A stretch of DNA of 64,000 bases from an uncultured Candidatus Saccharibacteria bacterium (GTDB lineage: Bacteria; Patescibacteriota; Saccharimonadia; Saccharimonadales; Saccharimonadaceae), in NCBI GenBank assembly GCA_937990725.1, contig CALKQS010000008.1:79217-143216 (forward strand). Direction: 5' to 3'. The notes under the pieces were generated by a model. It was not told the origin of the DNA and made no database searches. It saw only the letters and a list, made by a program, of their open reading frames with translations. The position numbers and the translations under genes are program-made. Position 1 is the stretch's first letter; every line of letters begins with the position of its first letter. Shown in pieces: positions 7,814 to 62,410 of this stretch.

Positions 7814-7827
7814 ACTAAATACAAGCA

Positions 7828-9195
7828 ATGAAAGTTCAATACGATAAAAGTTTAAAGATAGCAGGCGTTAGTATACAGCCATGGGCAAGAATTGGGCCTG
7901 AGCAGTGGTTTGATAATTACAAAATTGCTTCACTAGCTGGCTGGAATATGCGCAGTCAGAATGTAGAGCACATGAATAGTCTCGCTTATGTGCGCGATCA
8001 GTGCGAGAGACCTTATACAGGTGAACTAACTACACAGGCTCTTTTGCAAGACCCAATATTCCAAGATATGGTAATAACTCATTTGCCCGAGTATCATATT
8101 TTTACGTATAAACCTTTTGTAATTCCTGAGCGATTAAAACAAAGCAGTTTGCAATTTTTGCCTAGAAACGATATGTACGCGTTGGCTCAGAAGTTTGAGA
8201 ATAAATCGTGGTTTCGGCGTATTTTTGCAGAGCGTCTTTGCAGCATTCCATCACATAAAATATACCCTTGGCGAGAAATGTTATCGGATGAGGAATATTT
8301 TTCTAATCTCTGTGATGGACGCAGTAAGATTGTTTTGCAAGATGCTGCACTTGGTGGAGGGAAGGGGTCGTTTATTGTCGATAGCTTCGAGTCGTTCTGT
8401 TCTGCAATAAATACAATGCAAAATAGCAATGGTTTGGTTGGTGAGGTAGTTGTATCAGACTATATTGCTGATGGCCGTGATTGGTCGGTGCAGGGCGTTG
8501 TAACGCGCTACGGGGTCTTCATAGGGCCAGTGCAGCGGCAGATTATTGCAGACCCGAATTTATCAAATACAAGCATTCCTGGTACTGAGAAGTTTTGCGG
8601 TATTGAAATATTAGCAGATGATCAACACACGTGGCAGAGTAGTCAGCTAACGAAAAATGCACGCGTTATAGGCCAGGAATTATACGATAGAGGATATCGT
8701 GGTATTTTTGGTGTTGATTCTTTGGTGACGGATGATACAGTGTATACTATCGAAGTTAATGCACGCATTACGGGCGCTACACCGCTTCTTACAATGAGCT
8801 ATAATGCAAAGAAGCATATCCCCTTCTATCTTCTTCATATCTTAGAGTTAACGAATGCCAATTATATTATTGAGGATAATTCATACAGTAATGACTATAA
8901 TGATTGCGCGCTAATGGTGCTTCATCAACGAGACAGTGAGACAGGCATCGCCGACAGTCCTCGGTCGGGATTATATAATGAAAAGATGCAAATCATAGGC
9001 GATATAATGTCATTCGATAGGTCTTCTTCTGCAAAACAGGTTTTTGTACAGGATTATACAAGGAGCGAGAGGTCTATTGCGCGAGGGTCTCGATTGGCGT
9101 CTATATTTACTAATTTTCGTGTTATGGATGAAGAGGGTGTGCTTATGAGAGAATCAAGAAATATTATTGATATAATTGAAAATAGTTCGAAGTAA
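7828..9195 (+). CDS. ATP-grasp domain protein (amino-acid/peptide ligase-like), unknown specificity
   Basis: Glycine-rich loop DAALGGGKGSFIV, central WSVQGVV...GPVQRQI, and C-terminal GIFGVDSLV...YTIEVNARITGATP (the E-x-N Mg/ATP motif of ATP-grasp enzymes). 14 nt after the DUF1704 gene. Confidence 0.6.
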   Translation: MKVQYDKSLKIAGVSIQPWARIGPEQWFDNYKIASLAGWNMRSQNVEHMNSLAYVRDQCERPYTGELTTQALLQDPIFQDMVITHLPEYHIFTYKPFVIPERLKQSSLQFLPRNDMYALAQKFENKSWFRRIFAERLCSIPSHKIYPWREMLSDEEYFSNLCDGRSKIVLQDAALGGGKGSFIVDSFESFCSAINTMQNSNGLVGEVVVSDYIADGRDWSVQGVVTRYGVFIGPVQRQIIADPNLSNTSIPGTEKFCGIEILADDQHTWQSSQLTKNARVIGQELYDRGYRGIFGVDSLVTDDTVYTIEVNARITGATPLLTMSYNAKKHIPFYLLHILELTNANYIIEDNSYSNDYNDCALMVLHQRDSETGIADSPRSGLYNEKMQIIGDIMSFDRSSSAKQVFVQDYTRSERSIARGSRLASIFTNFRVMDEEGVLMRESRNIIDIIENSSK

Positions 9196-9209
9196 ATAAA
9201 TGTATCGCT

Positions 9210-10718
9210 ATGAATATGGAGCAAGAAAGCAAGAATAGTATCAAAAAAGCGGACCTGTCACGGTATGGCATTACTTCTCGATTACTAATGAAGGAGGCGC
9301 TCCGAAAAGGGTACCAGGTCACAACAGTTCCAGGTCGTTTAGCAATATCACATGTGGTGCGCTGTGAAAAAGACGGCAAAGAGCTTTACTTTTATAATCT
9401 TAATACTGCACTAAACCCTTCATATGCAGTTCAGGTGAATGAGGATAAGATCTGGACGAATAACATACTACACCAATCGCATATACAAATACCAGATACA
9501 TATCCATTGAAAATAAATAGACCCGAAGACGTGGTAATTGACGATACACTTCGAAAAATGCTAGAGTCCCATGAGCGTCTTGTTGTCAAATCTGCTACAG
9601 CAAACTACAGTAATAATGTTCTTATTAACACTGGTGATGAAGAAGGTTTGCTTCGTGCAATACACCGTGTATATCAGAATAGTGGTGGACAACCTGATAT
9701 AATTGTTCAGCAAATAGTTTTTGGGCAAGAATATCGCTTCTTAGTGTTAAATAAAAAAGTCATTGCAGTAGCATATCGTCGACCACCATATGTTGTTGGA
9801 GATGGAGTGTCAACAATACGAACCTTGATAAGTAAAAAAAATAATAATTGCTCAAAGCATGGCAACAGACACGCTAGTTTAGTAGCAAAAATAAACATTG
9901 AAGATGTGTCGAGACATAAAGGTATTCACTTTTTGCAATACGTTCCCGAGAAAGGTTCTGTTGTTGAGGTTTTAGATACATTGAATCTGAGCAGGGGAGG
10001 TGAAGCAGTTGATGTCACGAGTTATGTGTCTGATGAACTCAAAACTATAGCAATTCAAGCAGCATCAGCGTGTTTTCTTGGTATTGCTGGCATTGATATT
10101 GTAACGGATAACATTAGTGGCGATGGAAATGATAGCTATGTCGTAAGAGTGAAGGCATCTCCAGGGATACGAATGCACCAATTTCCAACAGAAGGCAAAC
10201 CTCGGAATGTTGCACGAAAACTATTTCATGCTATTGAAAAAACGGCGCATCCTATCGGCAAAAAAATAGTCATGATTGGCCGAGTTGAAAAGGTTGCTTT
10301 GCCTGATTTTATTAATGAAAAATTTAAAGCTCGGATAGATACGGGGGCAACAGTCTCGTCTATATGGGCAAGTGATATTCGAGTTAATAAGACAGGCCTC
10401 TATTGCAAACTATTTGGTGAAGGATCCCCAGTGTATACTGGTGAGGAGTTGCATTTTTCTGAGTATTCCATGCGCTCTGTTCGGAGTTCGAATGGTTATG
10501 AGGAATTGCGGTATCAAGTTGTCATTAATGTAAGTTTGGCAGGAAGGCGAGTGAAAGCAAAAGTTACACTAGCAGACAGATCGGGGCAGATCTACCCAAT
10601 GCTGATTGGAAGAAATATTTTGCGTAATAAATTCATCGTTCATGTTGCAGAGGGTGATATTGATAAGAAGGCTGAAAGTAGTAATCGTCAAGAACTACGC
10701 CAAAATGGACTACAATAG
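9210..10718 (+). CDS. fusion protein: ATP-grasp ligase (cyanophycin-synthetase/RimK-like) plus C-terminal DUF785 retropepsin-like (RimB-type) protease domain
   Basis: N-terminal two-thirds: IIVQQIVFGQEYRFLVLNKKVIAVAYRRPPYVVGDGVSTIRTLI, as in the CphA/RimK-type ATP-grasp core. C-terminal 140 aa: IGRVEKVALPDF...KARIDTGATVSS...LIGRNILRNKFIV, matching the DUF785 (PF05618) D-T-G-A aspartic-protease-like signature. Confidence 0.75.
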   Translation: MNMEQESKNSIKKADLSRYGITSRLLMKEALRKGYQVTTVPGRLAISHVVRCEKDGKELYFYNLNTALNPSYAVQVNEDKIWTNNILHQSHIQIPDTYPLKINRPEDVVIDDTLRKMLESHERLVVKSATANYSNNVLINTGDEEGLLRAIHRVYQNSGGQPDIIVQQIVFGQEYRFLVLNKKVIAVAYRRPPYVVGDGVSTIRTLISKKNNNCSKHGNRHASLVAKINIEDVSRHKGIHFLQYVPEKGSVVEVLDTLNLSRGGEAVDVTSYVSDELKTIAIQAASACFLGIAGIDIVTDNISGDGNDSYVVRVKASPGIRMHQFPTEGKPRNVARKLFHAIEKTAHPIGKKIVMIGRVEKVALPDFINEKFKARIDTGATVSSIWASDIRVNKTGLYCKLFGEGSPVYTGEELHFSEYSMRSVRSSNGYEELRYQVVINVSLAGRRVKAKVTLADRSGQIYPMLIGRNILRNKFIVHVAEGDIDKKAESSNRQELRQNGLQ

Positions 10719-10772
10719 AGACACAGAGCTTATAATAAGCAAAATCGATAAAATAATAGTACGAGGTATGGA

Positions 10773-11690
10773 GTGAAAATCGCAATACTCAGCAACGGCA
10801 ATGTGAACTACTCAACGCTTCGCCTCAAGGAAGAGGCGGAGAGGCGTGGACATAGTGTGAGAGTGATTAAATACCGCAAATGTTATGTGACGATTGATGA
10901 GAAGAACCCAACGGTGATGTATGATGGTGAAGCAATCGATCAGTATGATGCAATAATTCCGCGCATTGCAAGCTATATGACTCGCTATGGCACAGCAGTA
11001 GCGCGCCAATTAGAAATGGCGTACCCACGCACGCTTTTTGTTAATCGCTCGATTGCGATTACCCGGGCGCGCGATAAACTGCGTTCGACACAGCTGCTAG
11101 CCCGAGGTGGAGTAGCTATTCCTAAGACAGTGTTTAGCCGTAACTCAGCCGATATAGACGATCTCCTTAACGAACTTGGTGGTACGCCAGTTATCATCAA
11201 ACTCGCTCGTGGTACTCATGGTAATGGTGTGGTGCTAGCGGAGACGAAGAAGGCGGCAAAGTCAGTGCTTCAGGCGTTGTACCTCACCAACGAGGATGGG
11301 ACAAACATCCTGTTGCAAGAATTTATTCGTGAGTCAGCTGGAGTAGACATCCGCGCCTTTGTGGTGGGGAGCCGGGTAGTGGCGAGTATGAAGCGCCAGA
11401 GCTTAGACGATGACTTTCGCTCTAACCTCCATAAGGGAGGCGAAGGAACGCCGATTCGCTTGACGGATACCGAGCGTCGCATGTGTTTGCGGGCAGCTAA
11501 GGCGATGGGCTTGACGGTGGCGGGTGTTGACTTTATGCGCTCGAGTCGTGGGCCGTTGGTGCTTGAGGTCAATGCGAGCCCAGGCTTTGGGATAGAGAAA
11601 ATTACGCGGCGCAATGTGGCCAAGCCAATCATTGAATATATTGAGCGCAATGCGAAGCGGCAGCACAAGAGGGATCGTGTTGGGGCATAA
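10773..11690 (+). CDS. rimK: RimK-family alpha-L-glutamate ligase (ribosomal protein S6 modification type)
   Basis: GTG start, MKIAILS...RLKEEAERRGH, PVIIKLARGTHGNGVVL, LLQEFI...G.DIRAFVVG, and VAGVDFMRS..GPLVLEVNASPG are typical RimK blocks over the full 305 aa. Confidence 0.85.
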   Translation: MKIAILSNGNVNYSTLRLKEEAERRGHSVRVIKYRKCYVTIDEKNPTVMYDGEAIDQYDAIIPRIASYMTRYGTAVARQLEMAYPRTLFVNRSIAITRARDKLRSTQLLARGGVAIPKTVFSRNSADIDDLLNELGGTPVIIKLARGTHGNGVVLAETKKAAKSVLQALYLTNEDGTNILLQEFIRESAGVDIRAFVVGSRVVASMKRQSLDDDFRSNLHKGGEGTPIRLTDTERRMCLRAAKAMGLTVAGVDFMRSSRGPLVLEVNASPGFGIEKITRRNVAKPIIEYIERNAKRQHKRDRVGA

Positions 11691-50816: not shown

Positions 50817-51590
50817 CTACTTTAACCCCCGAAAAGTGCTTGATTTGACGTTATCATACATCTTGTTGTCTTGAAGGAGCTTCTTCATCGCTTTTACATC
50901 ATCAGGCTGTCCAGCTAAGAGATACTGAGCTTGATTGCCATACATATTGATTGCCTGTGCAACGTGCTCTTGACTCTGGGAAAGACTAGCATTGGTTTCA
51001 TAGGTGACATTGGCTGTTTTATTTGCTAACTCCGAGAGCTCCTTATCAAAGACCGCTACTCCCTTGTCTAGATGGTAGAGAACGATGGGGCGTTTGCCAG
51101 CCCACTGCCTGACAATTGGTCGCATTGCCGAGATGCCGACATCAGATGCAAAACAAACCAGTGGCGTGTCGCCGTCCGTAACGAACAAAGACGAACCTAG
51201 CCAACTCATCTCGATCTGGCTACCTGCCGGTAGACTCGTCAAAGCTTTTTTATAGGGGCTGCCACTATTGTGCGTCACTATGACGATTTCATTATCCTCA
51301 GGGCTAGAAGCAATGCTCAGCCAACGGCTTGTCTGTTCTCCCTTATGATCATTCTTTTTACCACCAGATGCCGTACTGGGTAGCGTAATCTTGGCATAAG
51401 AGCCTGCCTTCCACGTCATACTATCAGGTTTTGCCAGGCGAATAACGTGGAGGTTGCCGCTAGGGTTTTCGATGGATTTGATTGATAACGTTTGGCTCCG
51501 CCCCAAGTACGCGATGACACCCCAAGTGACAAGGCCTATAACTGCAAGAATAGCTATAACGATGATTACCATTTTTTTACCCCTTTTCAT
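50817..51590 (-). CDS. membrane-anchored ferredoxin-reductase-like (FNR-fold) oxidoreductase
   Basis: N-terminal TM helix. SRWLSIASSP resembles the R-x-Y-S-x-x-S FAD-binding motif, and FASDVGISAMRPI resembles the G-x-G-I-x-P NAD(P) motif. Confidence 0.45.
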   Translation of the reverse strand: MKRGKKMVIIVIAILAVIGLVTWGVIAYLGRSQTLSIKSIENPSGNLHVIRLAKPDSMTWKAGSYAKITLPSTASGGKKNDHKGEQTSRWLSIASSPEDNEIVIVTHNSGSPYKKALTSLPAGSQIEMSWLGSSLFVTDGDTPLVCFASDVGISAMRPIVRQWAGKRPIVLYHLDKGVAVFDKELSELANKTANVTYETNASLSQSQEHVAQAINMYGNQAQYLLAGQPDDVKAMKKLLQDNKMYDNVKSSTFRGLK

Positions 51591-52206
51591 TATGTAAAAT
51601 ACCTTTCACAAAGTTAGTGGCAAGTACTTCTAGCGTCCTACCGATACCCGGAAAATCGTTTTCCGTGATATGTATATCCATGTAGTAAAACAAATTATAA
51701 ACCTGTAAAATATTCTGAATCTTCTCCTCTGAATATCCTTCTGCCACCATACGATTAGTAAAGGTTTCGACTAAAAACTGATGAAAGGTATTGGTGGATT
51801 TGCCTTTACCTGAAGAATAATAGCTGCGCAGCGTACGAGAAATGGCTGGATTATGCCATTCCGCCAGGATTTTATTGGACGAAACCAGGCTACGTGACTG
51901 CTCAAAAATCTGCCTCACAAGTTCAACCAAATCCTGCTGCCAATCGATGTCATCCATCATTGCTTGGCGAACGCGGTTATTCTCCTCAACGTACACATCC
52001 AGAAAGATAGCTTCCTTGCCGCTGTAGTAGTTATAAAAAGAACCAACTGCTACGCCAGCACGTTTAGCGATTTCTGAGATCCCGGCCTCCTTATAGCCCT
52101 TTTTTGAGAAGACATCATAGGCGGCTGTTTTTAATGTTTGCTTCTTGTTCAATGCTCGTGACTCCCTCATTAATGATGTTCTGAATGAATAAATTTTTAT
52201 ATTCAT
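51577..52206 (-). CDS. TetR/AcrR family transcriptional regulator
   Basis: The HTH TAAYDVFSKKGYKEAGISEIAKRAGVAVGSFYNYYSGKE. 14-nt overlap with the downstream oxidoreductase. TATACT lies 5 nt upstream of ATG 52206, and ATG 52170 is an alternative. Confidence 0.8.
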   Translation of the reverse strand: MNIKIYSFRTSLMRESRALNKKQTLKTAAYDVFSKKGYKEAGISEIAKRAGVAVGSFYNYYSGKEAIFLDVYVEENNRVRQAMMDDIDWQQDLVELVRQIFEQSRSLVSSNKILAEWHNPAISRTLRSYYSSGKGKSTNTFHQFLVETFTNRMVAEGYSEEKIQNILQVYNLFYYMDIHITENDFPGIGRTLEVLATNFVKGILHNEKG

Positions 52207-52366: not shown

Positions 52367-52996
52367 TCATTGGCTCTGTATCTTATCCACCAACTTCGTC
52401 AGCTTCACCCCGCCGTACATCCAGTGGTCGGCGCCGCGGTATGCGCCGGAGTTGTTGACTTCGCCGCGCTGGGTATAGATCAGGCGGGTCAGGGCAGACA
52501 GGCGCCAGGTTTTGCCGCTGTAGGATACCTCGCGTGGGCCAGCTACGACGGCGGTGATGGCTGGGTCTTTGATAAAGTGGATGCTCGCGCCCTTGTCGAT
52601 ACCCTTTTTGTAAAAGCTAAAGCGCTGATCTTGCTGGTGTGCGGTGGTAACGGCCTCGAACGAGTCGGCCTTGCTGGTGGATTGAGCTGGCTTGGGGTAA
52701 ATCTGCGTACCATCAAGGGCAAGCAGCAGCCGCTGGATAAGATATTCATCAAGCGCAAAGAACTCACTCCGGCCAATGCGATGTTTGCTAAAGACTTCGT
52801 GCAGGAGCTGTTCCTTTTTGTGGTAATTATCTACCTCAATGGCGACCAGCCGCTGCAGCCCAGTGATGTTGGAGTAGCCGTTAGACTCAAGATATTGCAT
52901 GCGCGCCTCGAAGCGGTCGACGCTGGTCTTACCAATCTTGACCAAACCCTCAATAGCACTGGTCATAACATAAATCACTCCGCGCGGCTCGGACAT
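52367..52996 (-). CDS. GIY-YIG/T5orf172-type nuclease-like domain protein with a DUF4357-like C-terminus
   Basis: GVIYVMTSA..GLVKIGKTS...R...L........L..A.EV.......E..LH..F...R....SEFF resembles the T5orf172/GIY-YIG pattern. Divergent from hsdM. Confidence 0.6.
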   Translation of the reverse strand: MSEPRGVIYVMTSAIEGLVKIGKTSVDRFEARMQYLESNGYSNITGLQRLVAIEVDNYHKKEQLLHEVFSKHRIGRSEFFALDEYLIQRLLLALDGTQIYPKPAQSTSKADSFEAVTTAHQQDQRFSFYKKGIDKGASIHFIKDPAITAVVAGPREVSYSGKTWRLSALTRLIYTQRGEVNNSGAYRGADHWMYGGVKLTKLVDKIQSQ

Positions 52997-53002
52997 GGTT
53001 TT

Positions 53003-53011
53003 ATTGTAGCA
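53003..53011 (-). promoter_or_regulatory. extended -10 TGcTACAAT, 6 nt upstream of ATG 52996 (leaderless-type)
   Basis: The minus strand reads TGCTACAAT-aaaacc-ATG. Confidence 0.5.
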
Positions 53012-53084
53012 GACTGTGGGGCAGGTGAATAGCCAATGGTAGTAAAATGCTTCAGCCAGCCTCGTTAATTAGGCTTGCTTGCAG

Positions 53085-53090
53085 TATAAT
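53085..53090 (+). promoter_or_regulatory. -10 box TATAAT, 7 nt upstream of the hsdM ATG
   Basis: TATAAT, gap gaggggc, then ATG 53098. Confidence 0.45.
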
Positions 53091-53097
53091 GAGGGGC

Positions 53098-54684
53098 ATG
53101 ACAACAGGGGATAATCGTAAAGAACAAGAACGCAGCAAGCTTCACAATACTATTTGGAAAATTGCCAATGACCTGCGCGGATCAGTCGATGGATGGGACT
53201 TTAAGACGTATGTGCTAGGGTTCTTATTTTACCGGTTTATATCGGAAAATCTAGTCAATTATATTAATGCTGAAGAGCGTAAAACTGGTGTGGCTGATTT
53301 TAATTACGCTGAACTTAGCGATGATCAGGCGGAGTTTGGTCGCGAGGATACGGTAAACGACAAAGGATTTTATATTTTACCAAGCGAGCTGTTTGAAAAT
53401 GTCCGTAAGCGTGCCAAAAATGACGAAAATTTGAACGAAACGCTGAGTAAAATATTCCGTAACATTGAGCAATCGGCCAAGGGTTTTGATAGTGAGGATG
53501 ATTTCCGTGGATTATTTGACGATTTAGACGTTAATAGCAATAAGCTTGGTCCGACTGTTACCAGACGCAATGAACGATTGGTGAAATTGATGAACGCCAT
53601 CGGTGAATTAGAGCTTGGTAAGTTTGAAGACAATACAATTGACGCTTTTGGCGACGCATATGAGTATCTGATGACCATGTATGCTGGTAATGCTGGCAAA
53701 TCTGGAGGCGAGTTCTTTACGCCGCAAGAAGTGAGCGAACTTTTGGCAAAAATTACTGTTGTCGGTAAGACATCGGTAAACAAAGTGTATGACCCAGCGG
53801 CAGGCTCCGGTTCGCTACTGCTAAAGTTTGCGAAAGTTTTGGGTAAGGATAATGTCCGGCAAGGCTTTTATGGGCAAGAGATTAACATTACGACTTATAA
53901 TCTTTGCCGCATCAACATGTTCCTGCATGACATTAATTATGAAAAATTTAACATTGCTCACGGTGATACGCTGAAAGATCCGAAACACTGGGATGACGAG
54001 CCGTTTGATGCGATTGTTTCAAATCCGCCATATAGTATCAAATGGGACGGCGACAGTAATCCGACGCTCATCAACGATCCTCGCTTTAGCCCGGCTGGAG
54101 TCTTGGCACCGCGCAGTAAGGCTGATTTAGCATTCACGATGCATATGTTGAGCTGGCTGAGCGAGAGCGGCACGGCGGCGATTGTTGAGTTTCCTGGCGC
54201 GCTATATCGCGGTGGGGCTGAGGCAAAAATCCGCAAATACTTGGTAGAGAGTAATTATGTTGATGCCGTTATCCAGTTGCCACCAGACCTATTCTTTGGT
54301 ACGACAATTAGCACCTGTATCTTTGTTTTAAAAAAGAGCCGGGCGACGAATGACATATTGTTTATCGACGCTAGCGCTGAGTTTGTACGTAAAGGCAATA
54401 AAAATAAGTTGAACGAAGAAAATCGGCAGAAGATCCTGGATAGCTTTACTAACCGGCAAAATATTGATTACTTTGCGAAAGTTGCTACCTATGAAGATGT
54501 CGTCGCTAATGACTATAATCTATCAGTTAGCTCGTATGTTGAGGCTGAAGATACGCAAGAGGTGATTGATATCACTGAGCTCAATGCTGACATTGCAAAG
54601 ATCGTGGCTCGCCAGTCTGAATTGCGCACAGAAATTGATGCAATAGTTGCGGATCTCGAGAGGGATAATGATGATGCGAGATAA
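53098..54684 (+). CDS. hsdM: type I restriction-modification system DNA methyltransferase subunit HsdM
   Basis: HsdM_N region (LHNTIWKIANDLRG..DGWDFKTYVLGFLFYRFISE), AdoMet motif VYDPAAGSGSLL, and catalytic NPPYS. Confidence 0.93.
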   Translation: MTTGDNRKEQERSKLHNTIWKIANDLRGSVDGWDFKTYVLGFLFYRFISENLVNYINAEERKTGVADFNYAELSDDQAEFGREDTVNDKGFYILPSELFENVRKRAKNDENLNETLSKIFRNIEQSAKGFDSEDDFRGLFDDLDVNSNKLGPTVTRRNERLVKLMNAIGELELGKFEDNTIDAFGDAYEYLMTMYAGNAGKSGGEFFTPQEVSELLAKITVVGKTSVNKVYDPAAGSGSLLLKFAKVLGKDNVRQGFYGQEINITTYNLCRINMFLHDINYEKFNIAHGDTLKDPKHWDDEPFDAIVSNPPYSIKWDGDSNPTLINDPRFSPAGVLAPRSKADLAFTMHMLSWLSESGTAAIVEFPGALYRGGAEAKIRKYLVESNYVDAVIQLPPDLFFGTTISTCIFVLKKSRATNDILFIDASAEFVRKGNKNKLNEENRQKILDSFTNRQNIDYFAKVATYEDVVANDYNLSVSSYVEAEDTQEVIDITELNADIAKIVARQSELRTEIDAIVADLERDNDDAR

Positions 54685-55087
54685 CGGCAATATCGTTATT
54701 TATGTTGATGATAATGGTAAGCCACAAGTTGATGTTCGGCTCCAAGATGAGACGGTTTGGCTGACGCAAGCGCAGCTGGTCGATTTGTATCAGTCAAGTA
54801 AAGCGAATGTCAGCGAGCATATAAAAAATATCTTTGATGAGGGCGAGCTTGACCGGGCGGCAACTGTTCGGAAATTCCGAACAGCTCGAACTGAGGGTGA
54901 TCGTCAGGTAGAGCGTGAATTAGAATACTATAATCTCGATACTTGTAAACTTAGTACCAAGCAGACTAAAGAAAAAATGCTAGTTGGGTATCGTAAATAT
55001 AAGGCGAAAAACTTGAGTAGCGTGGAAGAGGATTATCTGGAGAATATTAAGAAAACAGCCAAGAGATTGAAAGGTGAAATAAAGTGA
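54668..55087 (+). CDS. RhuM-family protein, internally deleted (N-terminal DNA-binding part fused to the C-terminal tail)
   Basis: IVIYVDDNGKPQVDVRLQDETVWLTQAQLVDLYQSSKANVSEHIKNIFDEGEL....VRKFR matches the RhuM N-terminus. The conserved core that normally follows YYNLD is missing, leaving 139 aa against about 330 aa expected. Confidence 0.6.
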   Translation: MMMRDNGNIVIYVDDNGKPQVDVRLQDETVWLTQAQLVDLYQSSKANVSEHIKNIFDEGELDRAATVRKFRTARTEGDRQVERELEYYNLDTCKLSTKQTKEKMLVGYRKYKAKNLSSVEEDYLENIKKTAKRLKGEIK

Positions 55088-57351
55088 GTATTCAGAAAGT
55101 TAAAATTAATTTTGAGCATTGTTATGGCATTCATAGGTTATGTAGTGACTTTGACTTTTCTAAATCTAATAAGCAGCTAACTAATAAGCAGCTAACTAAT
55201 ATGCAGCTAATTTATGCTCCGAATGGCACTATGAAAACGTCTTTTGCAAAAACTTTTAAGGATATGAGTGATCCTAGAGGAAAAACTAAACCTCACGATC
55301 AGCTTGATGAAACTTTGCAATCGACTTACAAAGTTATGGTTGAAGATAACGTCGGAAACGAGCGAGATATAACACCTGATGAAATTAAGGTTATTAAGTC
55401 TTATGATGAGTCTGCGTTTAAGTCAGAAGAGGCTATCCTCACCTTACTTGCCAACAAAGAGATTCGTCAACAATATGTTGATATTTTTAAAGAATTAGAC
55501 AATGAGAAAAAATCTGCATTAAGTCCTCTGAAAAGAATTACTGGCAGTAGTAATTACGAGCAAGAAATCATTGACGCTTTTTCTGACCCAGGAACTAAAA
55601 AACGTTCGATATTTGAAGTTTTGGCTACCATAATAGACGACGTAAAACAGTCAAATAGTACCTTTGATTTTGTTTATAATCATGTATTTGATCCTAAGGG
55701 GAAAGTGCGTGACTTTCTAGATGAAAATTATGATTTATTACAAAAATATAGTGAGAAATATAATGAACTGTTATCAAGCTCACAATTCTTTTCAAACAAC
55801 GGAGAGCGAGCTTTTGGTACGATTGAAGCAGGCGCTCTTCGTGATTCAATAAAAGGTGACGAATATTTCAAATCAGGACATAAACTTTCGTTAAAAGATG
55901 AGACAGTAGTGGATAGTGCAGAGAAATTGTCGAAGGTTATCGATAATGAGATTAAAAAAGTTTTTGATAATCAAGAAATTAAGGACATTTTTGATAAAAT
56001 AGACAAAAAGCTGCAAGGAAACCAAGAACTAAGGAACTTTAAAAAAGTTATAGAAAAAGATAAAGCTCTGATTGCCATGCTGACTAATTACGATGAATTT
56101 CGTAAGGAGGTTTGGTATAGTTTTCTAAAACAAGTCGAGCCTGGGGTCAGTAGTTTAGTCGAAAACTATAATACGAAAAAGCCAGATATTGAGGCGATTG
56201 TGGCTGTAGCAAATGATTCAAAAGGCCTGTGGGATGATACGATAGAAGAGTTCAAAACTCGATTTACTAGTTTGCCATTTTCTTTTGATATTAAAGATCG
56301 GGGCGATGCAATCCTAGGTAAATCAGCACCAACCGTTATATATAAATATGGTGATAGACTAGTTGATCAAGACGTATTGACGGATAGAATTCTAAGCCAG
56401 GGAGAGCGACGTGCTTTCTATCTACTTAATGTAATATTTGATATAAAATCACGAGAAAAAGAAAACAAAGAAACTTTATTTATTATAGATGATATCGCAG
56501 ACTCGTTTGACTATAAGAATAAATACGCTATTATTCAGTACTTAAACGACTTAAATAAGAGCGAAAATTTTAAGAGTATTGTTTTAACTCATAATTTTGA
56601 TTTTTATCGTACACTGCAAGAGCGAATACTAGTAAGCGGTAAATGGGATTATTCGTTTATAGCAGAAAGAAATAATGACGAGATTAGATTATTGCCAGGC
56701 GGAGAAAAGGTAATTACCGATCCTTTTAATAAATGGCGTAATAAATGTAATAAGGATGAAAAGCTACTTGTTGCCACCATACCGTTCATACGTGAGCTAT
56801 ATAACTATCAAAAAGGGAATAAATCGCCAGAGTATTTATTGCTAACACACCTACTTCATGACAAAGAAGCTGACAATCAAAACATTATACCTGCTACCTA
56901 CGATATAAAACTGAGTGATATTGAGGGTGTCTTTGTTGATATGTTAAATGTGCAGTTTAAGTTTCCAGATAAGACTAAAAAAGTTATAGACATTATTTTT
57001 AGTGTTGCTGATCAGATTCAGCAAGAATCTCATGACGGCATATGTTTGGAGGATAAGATAGTATTAGCTATGGCGGCTCGACTCTTGGCGGAGCGAGAAA
57101 TCCTTATCCATATGGAACGTCCGTCAGATGTAAGAAAAAATCAATTTTGGGAATTCTACAATGCGTTTCGGAATCAATTTGGAAGTGATGAAACTAAAAA
57201 AGGCATATTAGACGTTCTAGAACAGGTCAATATCATCACTCCGGCAAATATCCACATTAATTCATTTATGTACGAGCCAATTATTGACGTTGGTATTGAT
57301 GAGTTAGTTTGTTTATATGAGCGAGTAAAGGCTTTGCATGAGCAAAATTGA
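55084..57351 (+). CDS. ABC/SMC-like ATPase of the AAA_13 (PrrC/RloC-like) architecture with an uncharacterised C-terminal domain
   Basis: IKINFEHCYGI plus the degenerate Walker A YAPNGTMKTS. A long K/E/D-rich helical insertion. Signature-like LSQGERRAFYL, Walker B/D-loop LFIIDDIADSFD and H-loop VLTHNFDF. About 230 aa of C-terminal region (IPFIRELYNY...LLTHLLHDKE). GTGA overlap upstream and a 14-nt overlap with hsdS. Confidence 0.6.
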   Translation: MSIQKVKINFEHCYGIHRLCSDFDFSKSNKQLTNKQLTNMQLIYAPNGTMKTSFAKTFKDMSDPRGKTKPHDQLDETLQSTYKVMVEDNVGNERDITPDEIKVIKSYDESAFKSEEAILTLLANKEIRQQYVDIFKELDNEKKSALSPLKRITGSSNYEQEIIDAFSDPGTKKRSIFEVLATIIDDVKQSNSTFDFVYNHVFDPKGKVRDFLDENYDLLQKYSEKYNELLSSSQFFSNNGERAFGTIEAGALRDSIKGDEYFKSGHKLSLKDETVVDSAEKLSKVIDNEIKKVFDNQEIKDIFDKIDKKLQGNQELRNFKKVIEKDKALIAMLTNYDEFRKEVWYSFLKQVEPGVSSLVENYNTKKPDIEAIVAVANDSKGLWDDTIEEFKTRFTSLPFSFDIKDRGDAILGKSAPTVIYKYGDRLVDQDVLTDRILSQGERRAFYLLNVIFDIKSREKENKETLFIIDDIADSFDYKNKYAIIQYLNDLNKSENFKSIVLTHNFDFYRTLQERILVSGKWDYSFIAERNNDEIRLLPGGEKVITDPFNKWRNKCNKDEKLLVATIPFIRELYNYQKGNKSPEYLLLTHLLHDKEADNQNIIPATYDIKLSDIEGVFVDMLNVQFKFPDKTKKVIDIIFSVADQIQQESHDGICLEDKIVLAMAARLLAEREILIHMERPSDVRKNQFWEFYNAFRNQFGSDETKKGILDVLEQVNIITPANIHINSFMYEPIIDVGIDELVCLYERVKALHEQN
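55168..55212 (+). repeat. 15-bp in-frame tandem repeat x3 (NKQLT NKQLT NMQLI) just upstream of the Walker A motif
   Basis: AATAAGCAGCTAACT, AATAAGCAGCTAACT, AATATGCAGCTAATT. Confidence 0.85.
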
Positions 57352-58534
57352 TGATTTGATTAAAGAGTTGTGTCCAGGGGGAGTTAAAGTAAAAGAGTTA
57401 GGTGATATTGCTGTAGTAAAAACTGGGCAAGCAATTAATAAAACGATGATTCAGAATAGCCCAGGCGATTATCCAGTCGTTAATAGTGGTAAAGATCCAC
57501 TAGGTTATTATAAGAATTATAATACAGAAGATGATCCAATAGGTGTCACTAGCCGTGGTGCTGGCGTAGGCTCCGTGACATGGTACGAGGGAAGGTATTT
57601 TCGTGGCAACTTAAATTATTCAGTTACTATAAAAGAAAAGCGAGAAATAATGAATCGCTATCTATTTCATTTACTTCTTAATAATCAAAATTCTATTCAA
57701 GCCTTGGCTACGTATGATGGAATACCAGCATTAAATGCGAGTAATCTCAAAAAGCTTTCAGTCCCTGTTCCGCCCCTCGAGGTTCAAAAAGAGATTGTGC
57801 GTGTGCTAGACTCGTTTACAGAGCTAGAAGCAGAGCTAGAAGCAGAGCTAGAAGCAGAGCTAGAAGCGAGAAAGAGGCAGTATGAATACTATCGGAATAC
57901 GCTCTTGACGTTTGAGGATGATGTGGCGTGGAAGCCGATGGGTGAGGTAGGCGAACTTATACGTGGGAACGGACTGCAGAAAAAGGATTTTACGGAAGAG
58001 GGGTTTCCGTGTATTCATTATGGGCAGATTTATACGTATTATGGCTCAGAGGCGACTAACACAAAATCGTTTACTTCCGAAGAAGTATTTCAAAAGCTTA
58101 AGAAAGCTTTACGAGGAGATGTGCTGATTGCCGGTACGAGTGAAAATATAAATGATATATGTAAACCTTGTTATTGGAATGGATATGAGACTATTGGGGT
58201 TTCTGGTGATATGTTTATTTTTAGACCAAATAAAGATATCAGCGGTAAATATTTGACGTATGTCCTACAATCAGACAATTTTATGACTTACAAGCGGAGA
58301 TATGTTACAGGCACAAAAGTTATACGTTTATCTGCCGATAGTCTTAAGAGGTTTAAAGTCCCTGTCCCATCTCCCGAAAAGCAAAAGCAAATCGTCTCAA
58401 TTCTTGATAAATTTGAAAAACTTACCAACGATATTTCTGTTGGTTTGCCGGCGGAGATTGAAGCCCGCCGCAAGCAATACAAATATTATCGCAATAAATT
58501 ATTAACATTCAAAGAGTTGGAGTGCTCAAAATGA
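57338..58534 (+). CDS. hsdS: type I restriction-modification system specificity subunit HsdS
   Basis: Two target-recognition domains separated by a central conserved helix. Duplicated conserved blocks (EIVRVLDSF...RKRQYEYYRNTLLTF and QIVSILDKF...RRKQYKYYRNKLLTF). Confidence 0.92.
   Translation: MSKIDDLIKELCPGGVKVKELGDIAVVKTGQAINKTMIQNSPGDYPVVNSGKDPLGYYKNYNTEDDPIGVTSRGAGVGSVTWYEGRYFRGNLNYSVTIKEKREIMNRYLFHLLLNNQNSIQALATYDGIPALNASNLKKLSVPVPPLEVQKEIVRVLDSFTELEAELEAELEAELEARKRQYEYYRNTLLTFEDDVAWKPMGEVGELIRGNGLQKKDFTEEGFPCIHYGQIYTYYGSEATNTKSFTSEEVFQKLKKALRGDVLIAGTSENINDICKPCYWNGYETIGVSGDMFIFRPNKDISGKYLTYVLQSDNFMTYKRRYVTGTKVIRLSADSLKRFKVPVPSPEKQKQIVSILDKFEKLTNDISVGLPAEIEARRKQYKYYRNKLLTFKELECSK
57821..57868 (+). 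repeat. 12-bp tandem repeat x4 (ELEA)4 in the central conserved region of hsdS
   Basis: GAGCTAGAAGCA x3 plus GAGCTAGAAGCG, read directly. Confidence 0.9.
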
Positions 58535-61500
58535 AATATGATGTGATTGCTGAAAATAGCGACAGCACCGTCGTCAGCGACTACGTCTCGTCGTATCAGC
58601 GGGCGACGAGCTACCAGAGCGAGGCAGAACTAGAGCAGGAATTAATTAAGCAATTGCAGGCGCAGGCGTATGAATATTTGCCGATCAAGAGTGAGAGTGA
58701 TTTGATACAGAATCTGCGCACGCAGCTGGAGAAGCTGAACGACTGCACATTTACCGATGCTGAGTGGAAGCGGTTCTTCGCGGAGCGGATCGCTAATGGC
58801 AATGAAGATATCGCCGACAAGACCTTCAAGATCCAGGAAGACAGTACGCAATTATTGCAACGCGATAACGGCGAGGTAATTAATATTCGCCTGCTAGATA
58901 AAACCAATATTCACAAGAACTGCCTGCAGGTCATCAATCAATACGAGGTGTCGAGCGCACGGGATAACCGTTACGACGTGACGCTACTGGTGAATGGTTT
59001 GCCGCTGGTGCATATCGAACTAAAAAGGCGCGGTGTGCCCTTGCAAGAAGCGTTCAACCAAATTAATCGCTACCAGCGGGATAGTTTTTGGGCGGGCAGT
59101 GGGCTGTTTGAATACGTTCAGCTATTTGTGATCAGTAACGGCACTCATACAAAATACTACAGTAATACGACGCGCTGGCAGCATATCAATGAGGCGGGTA
59201 AATCGGATTCGCGTCGCAGTAAAAAGACCAGTAATAGCTTTGAGTTTACCAGTTGGTGGGCAGATGCTAATAATCGCCCGATTACCGATTTGATAGATTT
59301 TACGGCGACCTTTTTGTCTAAGCATACGCTACTGAACGTGCTAACGAAGTATTGCGTATTTACCAGCGATAAATTATTGCTGGTGATGCGCCCATACCAG
59401 ATCGTGGCGACTGAGCGTATCTTGAATCGCATCCAGATTGCCACAAATTACAAAAAGCTTGGTACAATTGAGGCTGGCGGTTATGTGTGGCATACGACAG
59501 GTAGTGGCAAGACGTTGACGAGTTTTAAGACAGCTCAGCTGACGAGTAAGTTGGACTACGTTGATAAAGTGCTTTTTGTGGTTGATCGTAAAGACCTCGA
59601 CTACCAGACTATGAAAGAATACGACAAGTTCCAGGAGGGCGCAGCAAATAGCAATACCAGCACGCGGGTTTTGACGAGGCAACTGGGCGATCCAAATGCT
59701 AAGATTATCATTACGACCATCCAGAAGCTCGATACATTCATCAAGCGCAATCAAGGACACAAGGCTTTTGATGATCACATAGTTATCATCTTTGACGAGT
59801 GCCACCGTTCGCAATTTGGCGATATGCACCATGCTATTACTAAAAGTTTTCGTAATTATCATTTGTTTGGTTTTACTGGTACGCCGATATTTGCTGATAA
59901 TGCGTCTAGTGGCGGGCGAGTTGATCTACGGACCACCGAGCAGGCGTTTGGTGATAAACTGCATACCTACACCATAGTTGATGCGATTACTGATAAGAAT
60001 GTGTTGCCGTTTCGGATTGACTACATTCGGACGATTCGCGAGGCGGATGAGGTTGATGACCAACAGAAAGTGCGAGATATTGATCGCGAGCGGGCATTGA
60101 ATGCTCCGGAGCGTATTCGTAATGTTGTGCAATATATCCGTGATCATTTTGATCAAAAAACTATGCGCAACGCCAAATCGTACGCGTTTACGCGGCTGAT
60201 GAATGTGCATGAAGTTGCGTCGGCGCGAAACAGAGCGGCAGTTGAAGAAGCGAAAGATAAAATTCGACTAAGTGGATTTAATTCAATTTTTGCGGTGAGT
60301 TCAATTGATACGGCCAAGCTTTATTATAATGAGTTTAAGTGCCAGCAAGCTAGCCTTCCCGAGGTGAGGCGGCTAAAAATAGCTACAATTTATAGCTACG
60401 GAGCCAATGATCCTGATCTAGAAATGGACGGCATGGATGATGAAAATTCGGAACGTACTGATGGGCTTGATGTTTCGTCGCGTGATTTTCTGGAGGGCGT
60501 AATTCGTGATTATAATGCAACATTTGGCACGAATTATGATACCAGCGCTGAGCGATTTCAGAATTACTATAAAGACGTGAGTCTGCGGATGAAGAACCGA
60601 GAGATTGATGTGTTGATCGTGGTGAATATGTTTTTGACAGGGTTTGATGCCACAACGTTGAATACGCTGTGGGTTGACAAAAACTTGCGAATGCATGGGT
60701 TGATTCAGGCGTATTCGCGGACGAATCGTATCCTTAATTCAATTAAAACCTATGGAAATATCGTGACATTTCGCAATTTGGAGGATGCGACCAATAAAGC
60801 TCTAGCACTTTTTGGCGACAGAGATGCGAAGGGTGTTGTATTGCTGCGTCCTTTCCGGGATTACTATGAGGGCTATGAAGACGCTGGAAAGAAAACGCCA
60901 GGCTATGTTGATTTGATCGCGGAGCTAAAAGATAAATTTCCAGTGGGCGAGATGATTACTGGTGAGCAAGAACAAAAGGAATTTGTGAAGCTATATGGTG
61001 CAATCCTGAGGCTGAAGAATATTCTGTCTAGCTTCGACGAGTTTATTGGCCAAGAGATTTTGAGCCAGCGAGATGTGCAAGATTATCACAGCATGTACAT
61101 TGACCTCTACAATGAACTGCGGCCGAAATCTGATGAGAGTAAGGAGAATATCAATGACGATTTGGTGTTTGAGATGGAACTGATCAAGCAGGTTGAAATA
61201 AATATTGATTACATCCTGGAATTGATTCGGCAGTATCACGATAGCCATTTGAACAATAAAGAGATTTTAGTCGATATTAATAAAGCCGAGAGTTGCGTAA
61301 TAAAAAGGATTTGATCGAGCAATTTATCACCTCGCTTACCGTTGATAGTTCGGTTGACGGTGATTGGCAGGAGTTTGTAAAATCAAGGAAAATCAAAGAA
61401 CTAGACCAGATTATTGATGATGAGAAATTAGATAAAAAAGCGACGTATACGTTTGTTGAAGATGCTTTTCGCGACGGATACATACAATCAACCGGCACAG

Positions 61501-61634
61501 GTCTATCGCGGATACTGCCACCCATGTCGCGTTTTTCGCCTAGTGGAGAGCGTAGCAAAAAACGTGAAACAGTGCTGGAAAAATTGAGAGATTTCTTTGA
61601 TCGATTCTTTGATGTTTCAAGCGGGAAGTTGTGA
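58531..61634 (+). pseudogene. hsdR: type I restriction enzyme R subunit HsdR, interrupted by a 1-nt frameshift near 61284-61293
   Basis: HsdR_N nuclease region, helicase motifs (TGSGKT, DECHRSQ, TGTPIF, and the motif VI region QAYSRTNR). The frame ends at 61314 (..INKAESCVIKRI*). The +2 frame continues LRNKKDLIEQFI... to 61634, which is the normal HsdR C-terminal domain. The ATGA start overlaps the hsdS stop. Confidence 0.85.
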
Positions 61635-61682
61635 GGATGACATGACTTTATAAAAATACAATAAGTATAGGAATATTAAGTT

Positions 61683-62174
61683 ATGACTTCAGCAGGAAAT
61701 GAATTTTATTGGGGTATTGTTGTTGCATCGTTGGCATACCTGGTAAAGAATTTTGTGTTTGACCAAATATTGGAATACCAGAGAGTAAAAGGAAGAATTC
61801 GGAATCGTTTGCGATACTATGCAAATGTTATTCATAGTACTAACCTAAATGAAAAGTTTATACAGGAAGTGCGGTCAGAATTTCGGCAGTTGAGCTGTGA
61901 TTTAGAAGAGAAATACTTTGCTGTTTTTATATTGGTAAGGCTAAAAGTTGTTCATTGGTTATTTGGGCTACCGTCGAAAAAAGATGTTATTGAAGCTGCC
62001 AAGAGTCTCATCTATTTATCAAATAGTGTTGGTGATAAAGGTGAAAACCGTGAAAGTCCTGTAAAACTTCAAGAGGAAGTTGATAAAGTAAAGGATCTTT
62101 TGTCAATAGGAAGTAGTGAGAATATAGTTGATAATATACGAAGATTCTTTAAAAGAAAAGGTGAAACTTCTTAA
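61683..62174 (+). CDS. hypothetical protein with an N-terminal TM helix, last AT-rich gene of the R-M island
   Basis: 163-aa ORF, about 35% GC, with no recognisable motif. It ends 2 nt before the GC-normal DUF167 gene. Confidence 0.45.
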   Translation: MTSAGNEFYWGIVVASLAYLVKNFVFDQILEYQRVKGRIRNRLRYYANVIHSTNLNEKFIQEVRSEFRQLSCDLEEKYFAVFILVRLKVVHWLFGLPSKKDVIEAAKSLIYLSNSVGDKGENRESPVKLQEEVDKVKDLLSIGSSENIVDNIRRFFKRKGETS

Positions 62175-62176
62175 CC

Positions 62177-62410
62177 ATGAAAATCCCCGCCACAATCAAA
62201 CCCAACTCCCGCCACCGCGAAGAAGTCGTGGTGGGTAGCGACGGCGTGTATATCATCTACACTAAAGCGCCGGCGATTGAGGGACGGGCGAATGCGGCGG
62301 CCATTAAGCTGCTAGCTAAATATTTTGGCGTGCCGCAGTCGGGGGTAAAGCTAGTGCGTGGGGCGACATCGAAGCATAAGGTGTTTAATATCGATAACGC
62401 AGTTCAATAA
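62177..62410 (+). CDS. DUF167 (YggU-like) family protein
   Basis: ...YTKAPAIEGRANAAAIKLLAKYFGVPQSGVKLVRGATSKHKVFNI matches the DUF167 consensus (G.AN..L...LA..F.V....V.IV.G..SR.K). Confidence 0.7.
   Translation: MKIPATIKPNSRHREEVVVGSDGVYIIYTKAPAIEGRANAAAIKLLAKYFGVPQSGVKLVRGATSKHKVFNIDNAVQ

Follow-up and report, generated by a model that had tools for sequence, protein, structure and literature searches.

The 64,000-nucleotide (nt) stretch of contig CALKQS010000008.1 (GenBank assembly GCA_937990725.1) that was analysed, called the window below, comes from an oral Candidatus Saccharibacteria (TM7) bacterium, and contigs 99.98% identical to it occur in human oral metagenomes. When species-representative genomes were scanned with the neighbouring polysaccharide deacetylase, all close hits were Candidatus Saccharibacteria, and the DUF8128/TraG-like genes beside the segment agree with this assignment. 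Between positions 52,367 and 62,174 it carries a type I restriction-modification (R-M) system related to EcoR124I, together with genes for a GIY-YIG-like T5orf172 nuclease, a RhuM-like protein, a 755-amino-acid (aa) ATP-binding cassette (ABC) ATPase of PADLOC family PDC-S46 (S46 hereafter) and a 163-aa open reading frame (ORF); conserved DUF167 and deacetylase genes flank it on the right. An earlier note on this DNA had proposed the order T5orf172 (minus strand), hsdM, RhuM, 755-aa ATPase, hsdS, split hsdR and 163-aa ORF, which the ORF map and profile searches reproduced (Table 1). The overlaps of 17 nt, 4 nt (GTGA), 14 nt and 4 nt (ATGA) that it listed are all found in the sequence, and hsdM to hsdR form a single plus-strand operon of tightly overlapping genes, as it had concluded. 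A PADLOC run on the block returned matches to PDC-S57 (T5orf172), PDC-S46, Specificity_I (HsdS) and, for its N-terminal part only, PDC-S05 (RhuM). The locus is probably an EcoR124I-type (IC) operon placed in a lineage-wide restriction hotspot upstream of DUF167, with cassettes and embedded genes exchanged horizontally, and now likely encodes a methyltransferase without efficient restriction, S46 being the proposed effector.

On all sequence criteria but that of an unbroken hsdR, the system belongs to type I R-M family IC (EcoR124I-like); hsdM and hsdS are intact. The hsdM ORF opens at 53047, with a homology-supported start at 53098 (or 53089) and an end at 54684. Its product matches TIGR00497 at E 9e-229 (760 bits against a cut-off of 243) and the Pfam families N6_Mtase and HsdM_N at E 6e-117 and 5e-20, and it contains the catalytic NPPY motif (as SNPPYS) and the S-adenosylmethionine-binding motifs. 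The ratio of nonsynonymous to synonymous substitution rates (dN/dS) of hsdM is 0.018 against L006 (L-numbers such as L001 or L006 denote the relative contigs or loci compared with the window). HsdS matches Methylase_S in two stretches (Pfam) separated by a conserved central region, and Specificity_I over its full length (E 9e-104); in the alignment with L006 the conserved regions alone align, and the target-recognition domains are unlike those of relatives. The whole length of HsdR aligns with that of EcoR124I (2W00; phmmer, E 4.7e-240); the protein keeps the D...E.K nuclease and DEAD motifs, and contains the PD-(D/E)xK nuclease, the superfamily 2 (SF2) helicase motor and the EcoR124_C helical domain (Pfam).

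The likeness to EcoR124I and EcoR124II covers the families of all three subunits, and it extends to hsdS, where the central conserved region contains a short tandem repeat in copy numbers that vary among relatives of the window. The perfect 12-nt unit CAGAGCTAGAAG occurs 4.1 times at 57819-57867, encoding ELEA x4, and is present in three copies in L006 and L004 (DNA alignment). In EcoR124I and EcoR124II, the number of such hsdS repeats sets the spacer length of the recognition site. The change in ELEA copy number may be a specificity switch. The window differs from EcoR124I/II in the order hsdM-(passengers)-hsdS-hsdR within one overlapping operon, in a 13-nt deletion that splits hsdR, and in its host, a reduced-genome bacterium of the Candidate Phyla Radiation (CPR).

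The segment occupies a slot with fixed borders. In blastn comparisons with six close relatives, homology with congeners ends at 53015, 53032 or 53071 and begins again at precisely 62175, 2 nt ahead of the ATG of DUF167. Of the island borders given by the earlier note, the right one at about 62.2 kb stands, and the left one at 52,367 does not: the variable part starts at about 53,015-53,071, and T5orf172 belongs to the flank. Same-genus relatives with 94-98% identical deacetylases carry other restriction systems in the slot. L010 carries hsdM-DUF3800-hsdS-189 aa-hsdR from a different type I family (43% identity), L011 and L012 have hsdM-RhuM-135 aa-hsdS-AbiZ-like-hsdR of a third type I family (27-30% identity), and L013 has an hsdR of the L010 type. 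Two slots are empty: that of L032 has no restriction system, and that of L023 holds no more than 640 nt of unrelated sequence and a frameshifted T5orf172. A search of these 640 nt for R-M remnants gave no similarity to any fetched locus; a short and weak (36%) match to a type III res-like sequence lies just beyond T5orf172. In other genera (deacetylase 55-61% identical), the same junction, 2-30 nt before the DUF167 ATG, holds an L011-type, a type III-like or a window-type system. The type III-like R-M system in the DUF167 slot of L098-L101 (887-7583), which are other oral Saccharibacteria, has embedded in it an SLFN_AlbA_2/HATPase_c_4 protein with a weak match to PADLOC pAgo-associated models. 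Next in order come a gene of 206 aa, one homologous to the 163-aa gene, and one for a ParA-like ATPase.

The cargo is more similar across lineages than the genes that flank it. The L011-type hsdR is about 90% identical at the DNA level (94-96% as protein) across genera in which DUF167 and deacetylase are 70-76% identical as DNA and the deacetylase 55-61% as protein, and this high identity begins at the hsdR stop codon. HsdM and HsdR of the window have 93-95% protein identity to those of L006, and the flanking genes 62-71%, with synonymous divergence (dS) saturated. The same five-gene cassette, hsdM-RhuM-S46-hsdS-hsdR, is found with all genes intact and 89-91% DNA identity at a second chromosomal site in L094-L096. 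There it lies between RadC and genes for an S24 peptidase, DUF2130 and SRA/NUDIX proteins, not beside DUF167. Conserved flanks, alternative cargo, empty sites, and cargo that is closer across lineages than the flanks together mark the slot as a hotspot. Horizontal acquisition, which the earlier note had proposed, is upheld: congeners hold different systems or nothing in the slot, cargo is more alike than flanks, and the block does not recur at the same place throughout the genus, as it would if there were no island. Whole cassettes and, separately, the genes between hsdM and hsdS have been replaced by horizontal exchange, for which recombination within the conserved flanking genes or beside them is the most likely route. 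A literature search found no paper describing this hotspot of Saccharibacteria.

The region was not assembled in one step. In the congener L102/L103, hsdR, the 163-aa gene, DUF167 and deacetylase are collinear with the window, with 91% identity continuing into the flank, and GajA/GajB-like genes lie upstream of hsdS where the window has RhuM and S46. Because hsdR and the 163-aa gene are, on this alignment, a backbone vertically inherited within the genus, the region is a layered mosaic and not one insertion. Against L006, dS is 1.5 for hsdM and 1.2 for hsdR, compared with 0.45-0.47 for S46 and the N-terminal part of RhuM. The GC content (GC) at third codon positions (GC3) is about 0.51 for hsdM and hsdR, 0.29 for S46, 0.34 for hsdS and 0.26 for the 163-aa gene. 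Since hsdM and hsdR differ from S46 and hsdS in dS and GC3, the R-M backbone is the older part, resident long enough in a GC-richer lineage to ameliorate, and the embedded module and the target-recognition domains of hsdS are later arrivals.

The composition of the segment is mosaic, as had been judged by eye: GC is 0.34-0.45 from hsdM to the 163-aa gene (hsdM 0.43, rhuM remnant 0.42, S46 0.34, hsdS 0.39, hsdR fragments 0.45 and 0.41, 163-aa gene 0.34, the minimum of the region), T5orf172 is richer at 0.55, DUF167 (0.53) and deacetylase span 0.53-0.58, and the window background is about 0.49-0.51. To the left of T5orf172, genes for a TetR-family regulator and an overlapping flavin-reductase-like protein (50817-52206) have GC of 0.41 and 0.47, and both are kept in congener L010 at 86-87% protein identity. 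Low GC alone is therefore no mark of the variable segment.

Table 1. Coordinates of the features of the restriction locus and its flanks in the window.
Feature	Position	Strand	Basis
T5orf172 (GIY-YIG-like) nuclease gene, 209 aa	52367-52996	-	Pfam T5orf172; PADLOC PDC-S57
Divergent intergenic region with left homology breakpoint and two -10-like hexamers	52997-53097	.	blastn end points; sequence
hsdM, type I N6-adenine methyltransferase gene, intact	53098-54684	+	TIGR00497; Pfam N6_Mtase, HsdM_N
RhuM (PDC-S05) remnant	54668-55087	+	PADLOC N-terminal match; alignment with L006
PDC-S46 protein, 755 aa	55084-57351	+	PADLOC full-length match
15-nt in-frame tandem repeat x3 inside S46	55166-55210	+	Tandem Repeats Finder (TRF); alignment
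hsdS, two target-recognition domains	57338-58534	+	Pfam Methylase_S; PADLOC Specificity_I
12-nt perfect tandem repeat x4.1 in hsdS	57819-57867	+	TRF; DNA alignment
hsdR N-terminal fragment, 927 aa	58531-61314	+	Pfam domains; phmmer to 2W00
hsdR C-terminal fragment, -1 frame	61293/61311-61634	+	Pfam EcoR124_C; tblastn frames; gene calls in L001/L002
163-aa ORF	61683-62174	+	no family match
DUF167 (YggU-like) gene, conserved right flank	62177-62410	+	Pfam DUF167 E 7e-18

Two genes of this copy have decayed. Relative to intact relatives, hsdR has lost 13 nt at about 61287, which shifts the frame within EcoR124_C (Pfam positions 144/152), and the ORF, broken inside that domain, does not encode HsdR as one polypeptide. 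The deletion is real and not a homopolymer slip; the other two public assemblies of the strain have it as well. It is recent, because hsdR is intact in the congener L102/L103 and in two sister lineages, L009 and L093. The restriction arm is thus broken, as the earlier note had suspected. The identical HsdS protein was seen solely on contigs carrying the hsdR frameshift, and no variant with an intact hsdR and the same hsdS allele was found. In EcoR124I, the C-terminal helical domain of HsdR is thought to mediate assembly with the methyltransferase (PMC5248579). As far as sequence can tell, the locus would now most likely produce an M2S1 methyltransferase without efficient restriction, and S46, possibly with T5orf172, would supply whatever additional protection remains.

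The second decayed gene is that of RhuM, in which the first ~95 codons are joined in frame to the last 49 and a core of ~190 aa has been lost, as seen from a blastn gap and from alignment with the 330-aa gene of L006. The remnant matches PDC-S05 at E 6e-35 through its N-terminal part, and covers 46 of the 252 profile positions of Pfam PF13310 at 19 bits, below the cut-off of 33.7. The deletion is common to L093, where the remnant has broken up further. The gene had been described as truncated; it is defective, though by an in-frame internal deletion and not by simple truncation. The suggestion that the passengers had all remained intact fails for RhuM, which is without its core domain, while S46, T5orf172 and the 163-aa ORF are intact.

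The 163-aa ORF has no match among Pfam, NCBIfam or PADLOC families. Its 28 homologous clusters are always located between a restriction gene and DUF167 in oral Saccharibacteria, whatever the R-M type, and the gene is absent from L009, L010, L011 and L093. The earlier note had called its product a transmembrane protein: two moderately hydrophobic stretches exist, and their Kyte-Doolittle peaks of 1.5-1.7 are borderline for membrane helices.

S46 belongs to a large family. It matches PDC-S46 at E 2.4e-215 (residues 4-751 against positions 2-718 of 719 in the profile) and phrog_38705 over its full length, and has more than 4300 relatives at E <= 1e-5. Its C-terminal domain alone finds about 925 clusters at 50% identity; the full-length matches share one architecture of ~680-780 aa, and the shorter ones are probably fragments. 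Residues 1-530 form an ABC ATPase head that is split by ~280 aa of helical insert (AlphaFold2 (AF2) model, confidence score pLDDT 82), for which Foldseek finds the heads of Rad50, SMC, cohesin and RecF at E 2e-6 to 1e-3. Residues 530-755 form an all-alpha C-terminal domain of 226 residues (separate AF2 model, pLDDT 86, predicted template modelling score (pTM) 0.85). Across 220 sequences the signature LSxGE(R/K)R, the Walker B motif DD followed by ADSFDY and the H-loop THNFDF are all invariant, as are H592, K658, R666, E670, H724, N726, E731 and D735 of the C-terminal domain. The Walker A motif reads YAPNGxMK(T/S)S, its NGxMK(T/S)S part lying at residues 47-53 of the window's S46, with methionine at the canonical glycine position in 215 of 218 sequences.

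A check by dN/dS, which the earlier note had proposed for the passengers, indicates purifying selection on S46 and T5orf172. For S46 the ratio is 0.12-0.16 and purifying in every comparison, with 0.13 at a dS of 0.17 against the nearest relative (L093). Relatives with at least 48% identity, many of them from CPR bacteria, lie directly after hsdM, with or without RhuM. All-against-all clustering of the ORFs that flank S46 in 80 metagenome loci identified no conserved partner gene other than type I R-M genes, which were present in 16 of the loci, a context that fits a self-contained single-gene module. Because a single phage record, an unannotated one of 13.9 kb with 33% identity, was found among 50,697, the family is mainly cellular despite its PHROG membership. 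In L089 (4509-15904), which is from another metagenome, a type I operon comprises genes for PDC-S02 (NucS_C-like), HsdM, S46, HsdS, a bona fide PrrC, HsdR, a 237-aa ORF and HEPN_AbiU2.

An anti-phage role of S46, RhuM and T5orf172 is a published prediction from their genetic embedding in type I R-M loci (PADLOC PDC; Payne et al., bioRxiv 10.1101/2024.01.29.577857); PDC-S46, PDC-S05 and PDC-S57 are not among the candidates tested in the main text of that paper, and a literature search for "PDC-S46" found no paper. The window repeats the type I context of these candidates, S46 and T5orf172 (PDC-S57) matching over their full lengths and PDC-S05 in its N-terminal part, with the difference that the PDC families are predictions and the RhuM gene of the window is a dead remnant. 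S46 may be a self-contained, nucleotide-regulated effector with an RloC type of logic, in which the SMC/Rad50-like ABC head would sense or switch and so control an enzymatic C-terminal domain, the whole acting as a second-line or abortive-infection layer. A bolder version, put forward tentatively, is that S46 represents a new kind of single-protein immune effector, in which an ABC switch with an obligatory P-loop methionine (NGxMKTS) is joined to an undescribed all-alpha enzymatic domain unrelated to HEPN or PrrC, and which in CPR bacteria is wired behind hsdM as a "modification plus abortive infection" pair that outlives the loss of HsdR.

Several observations weigh against the interpretation of the locus as an exchanged IC operon with S46 as effector. 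A search that was not exhaustive found neither a recombinase nor an att-like site that would explain the precise junctions, nor any integrase- or transposase-like ORF in 52.3-62.2 kb, nor a shared repeat beyond the DUF167 start. The C-terminal domain of S46 has no significant fold match (best Foldseek E 0.4 in PDB and 0.2 among the BFVD viral structures), and sequence searches with it returned nothing in PDB and nothing in Pfam at E <= 1. The methionine in the P-loop makes ATP binding itself uncertain. This particular copy has a 10-aa repeat insertion (NKQLT x2) directly before the P-loop strand, which is absent from all 38 aligned relatives, and pLDDT falls below 50 at residues 29-34. Of 80 distant metagenome S46 loci, 64 have no type I genes within 6 kb, and because of this the link between S46 and restriction is a feature of a subfamily. 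Finally, TTG 61311 overlaps the TGA at 61312-61314 (TTGA), and a re-initiated, two-piece HsdR is conceivable.

The alternative with the most in its favour, though still rather unlikely, is that S46 is not an independent effector at all: it would be an accessory of DNA transactions (an SMC/RecF-like ATPase acting in methyltransferase modulation, restriction alleviation or repair) or a selfish gene of the addiction type. The significant structural matches are limited to Rad50, SMC and RecF heads, no recognisable nuclease or toxin domain was found in S46, and the defence role is predicted from embedding alone; moreover, the CPR subfamily is always directly behind hsdM with overlapping codons. Most family members, however, stand alone in variable neighbourhoods without a conserved partner, which points to a self-sufficient module and not an R-M subunit, and the eight invariant polar or charged residues of the C-terminal domain are typical of an active site. 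The co-occurrence of S46 with PrrC, PDC-S02 and HEPN_AbiU2 in a multi-layer operon also favours an effector.

T5orf172 raises a different question, that of whether every gene listed with the island serves defence. It scores 38.3 bits against a Pfam cut-off of 20 (E 2e-9), matches PDC-S57 at E 8e-51 with a full-length match at E 3e-37 (PDLC05041, residues 1-207 of 212), and matches a PHROG "homing endonuclease" at E 1e-6. Against L010 and L011 its dN/dS is 0.06-0.09, indicating purifying selection, and its dS of 0.29-0.38 is akin to that of the flanking genes (0.35-0.40); from these alignments, within the genus the gene belongs to the conserved sequence on the left of the variable slot. In L023 (reverse complement, 8435-9916) T5orf172 is frameshifted and has 94% DNA identity to the window copy, in a genome whose deacetylase has only 69%, which suggests that this copy is a transferred and then decayed hotspot edge and shows that the gene has moved between genera. 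It is improbable, though worth setting out, that T5orf172 is no defence gene but a selfish one resembling homing endonucleases, which would mark the left exchange boundary and perhaps promote exchange there. The homology breakpoints lie 19-75 nt upstream of its start codon, the identities in L023 imply a horizontal move to the same slot, T5orf172 genes occupy genetic-exchange boundaries in phages (PMC10448857), and the PHROG match agrees. On the other hand, T5orf172 is absent from the hotspot in other genera, where cassettes swap anyway; its evolution within the genus is that of a gene passed on vertically and kept by purifying selection; and the sole empty-slot genome with T5orf172 has a frameshifted copy and is a single case.

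Less probable again is that the split hsdR still functions, its fragments being made by TTGA coupling or by rare -1 slippage on A-AAA-AGG to complete the R-M enzyme, in place of the predicted methyltransferase without efficient restriction. The overlap of TTG 61311 with the stop codon resembles the coupling style of the other operon junctions, and the C-terminal fragment (113 aa from TTG 61293 or 107 aa from TTG 61311, covering EcoR124_C positions 152-260) has 84-93% protein identity to intact relatives and no internal stop. However, the break falls within a single helical domain, several residues were replaced in addition to the 13 nt lost, and every intact relative encodes HsdR as a single protein of 1038-1039 aa. 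In the closest comparison, with L093, dN/dS of the C-terminal fragment is 0.29, a figure that rests on eight substitutions and is five times the 0.06 of the N-terminal part (range 0.03-0.06). A programmed frameshift was rejected in view of the 13-nt deletion and of the A-run, which does not match the slippery pattern X-XXY-YYZ, leaving TTGA re-initiation as the form of this explanation that was kept, at low probability.

Least likely of all is that S46 is a diverged anticodon nuclease (ACNase) of the PrrC/RloC type, with R666-x3-E670-x53-H724 as catalytic triad, as its listing with PrrC/RloC-like genes in the earlier note had implied. The published RloC/PrrC motif is Arg-X3-Glu-X36-52-His (PMC2610378), and the S46 version is invariant in 217-219 of 220 sequences; S46 shares with RloC a length of ~750-800 aa and the plan of an ABC head with a long helical insert in it and a helical domain at the C-terminal end; and the PADLOC PrrC model matches its ABC region (residues 384-536, E 5.5e-11), as expected of the N-terminal part of a PrrC or RloC. 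RloC itself is mostly stand-alone and sometimes found in R-M loci (PMC2610378), and "RloC-like ABC-HEPN proteins" have been described beside RhuM/Doc genes in R-M operons and predicted to provide multi-pronged defence (Anantharaman et al., PMC3710099). Comparison of the nuclease domains decides against the assignment: when the profile of 220 S46 sequences was aligned by hhalign with that of 120 PrrC sequences (seeded with the L089 PrrC, PADLOC E 3e-100), the C-terminal domain reached a probability of 0.2-0.3%, and the sole weak PrrC-like stretch was in the insert (residues 281-394, 14-45%) and without the catalytic His. S46 also lacks the Rx4-6H motif of HEPN proteins, HEPN folds are matched by its C-terminal domain only at Foldseek E 3-4, and it has no conserved Cys in the insert and hence no CxxC zinc hook, in addition to the Met for Gly in Walker A. 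Because both occur in the L089 operon, S46 and a real PrrC are not alternatives. S46 is thus not filed as a PrrC or RloC, and may work by similar logic.

The resemblance to the EcoprrI-PrrC pair is one of arrangement: both are type IC operons with an embedded ABC-ATPase protein, a second layer restrained by, or cooperating with, the R-M enzyme (PMC3710099). They differ in the place of the embedded gene, which for S46 is between hsdM and hsdS and for PrrC between hsdS and hsdR; in addition, S46 has twice the length of PrrC and a C-terminal domain without homology to the PrrC nuclease domain. The slot as a whole resembles the defence-island hotspots of E. coli as far as these are described in PMC10121019, with fixed flanks, variable immune cargo, some empty sites and the same cargo in distant lineages. 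Measured against that description, the Saccharibacteria slot differs in lying in genomes of ~0.7 Mb, in having no integrase or mobility gene, in a cargo made up almost exclusively of restriction systems, and in a junction 2-30 nt from the point where DUF167 starts.

That candidate defence genes are embedded in type I R-M loci and that defence hotspots exist had both been described, so that current concepts are unchanged and the locus is a well-documented case of a known pattern, useful and unsurprising to a specialist. The gene anatomy, lesions, horizontal exchange and gene-by-gene selection were read from the compared sequences. What is new, from the most to the least confident point, is the restriction hotspot next to DUF167 in oral Saccharibacteria, where cassettes are exchanged across genera and passengers swapped on a single backbone; the fact that this copy has decayed recently; and the description of the S46 family, with its deviant P-loop, orphan C-terminal fold and lack of relation to the PrrC nuclease. 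As far as PMC4742961 covers them, Saccharibacteria and other CPR bacteria are largely without CRISPR-Cas, and restriction systems are for that reason probably a main part of their immunity. A single slot in which three type I families, type III-like systems and embedded RhuM, S46, AbiZ-like, DUF3800 and GajA/GajB-like genes interchange is a place to study immune diversification in reduced genomes, and the DUF167-deacetylase pair is a landmark for finding new defence genes in oral TM7 genomes. Being a large family under purifying selection, with an unusual P-loop and a C-terminal domain without known fold, S46 is a target for experiment.

Some minor features of the window may be added. The earlier note had drawn attention to back-to-back -10 boxes between T5orf172 and hsdM. 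The strings are present: TGcTACAAT, at 53003-53011, is on the minus strand, and TATAAT occupies 53085-53090. A consensus scan of the operon region for promoters and terminators gave counts at chance level (30 promoter-like sites against 25.9 +/- 5 expected) and so neither supports nor dismisses the boxes as promoters. Each hexamer ends 6-7 nt upstream of its ATG, and if they are real promoters, the mRNAs of T5orf172 and hsdM are both leaderless. A second block of low GC (0.40-0.47 against ~0.51) extends from 6233 to 11690 of the window. Its genes specify RimK, a MATCAP-like peptidase and a pair of ATP-grasp proteins, of which one carries a fused Zn_protease domain; it looks like a peptide-ligase/peptidase cluster and may have been acquired too.

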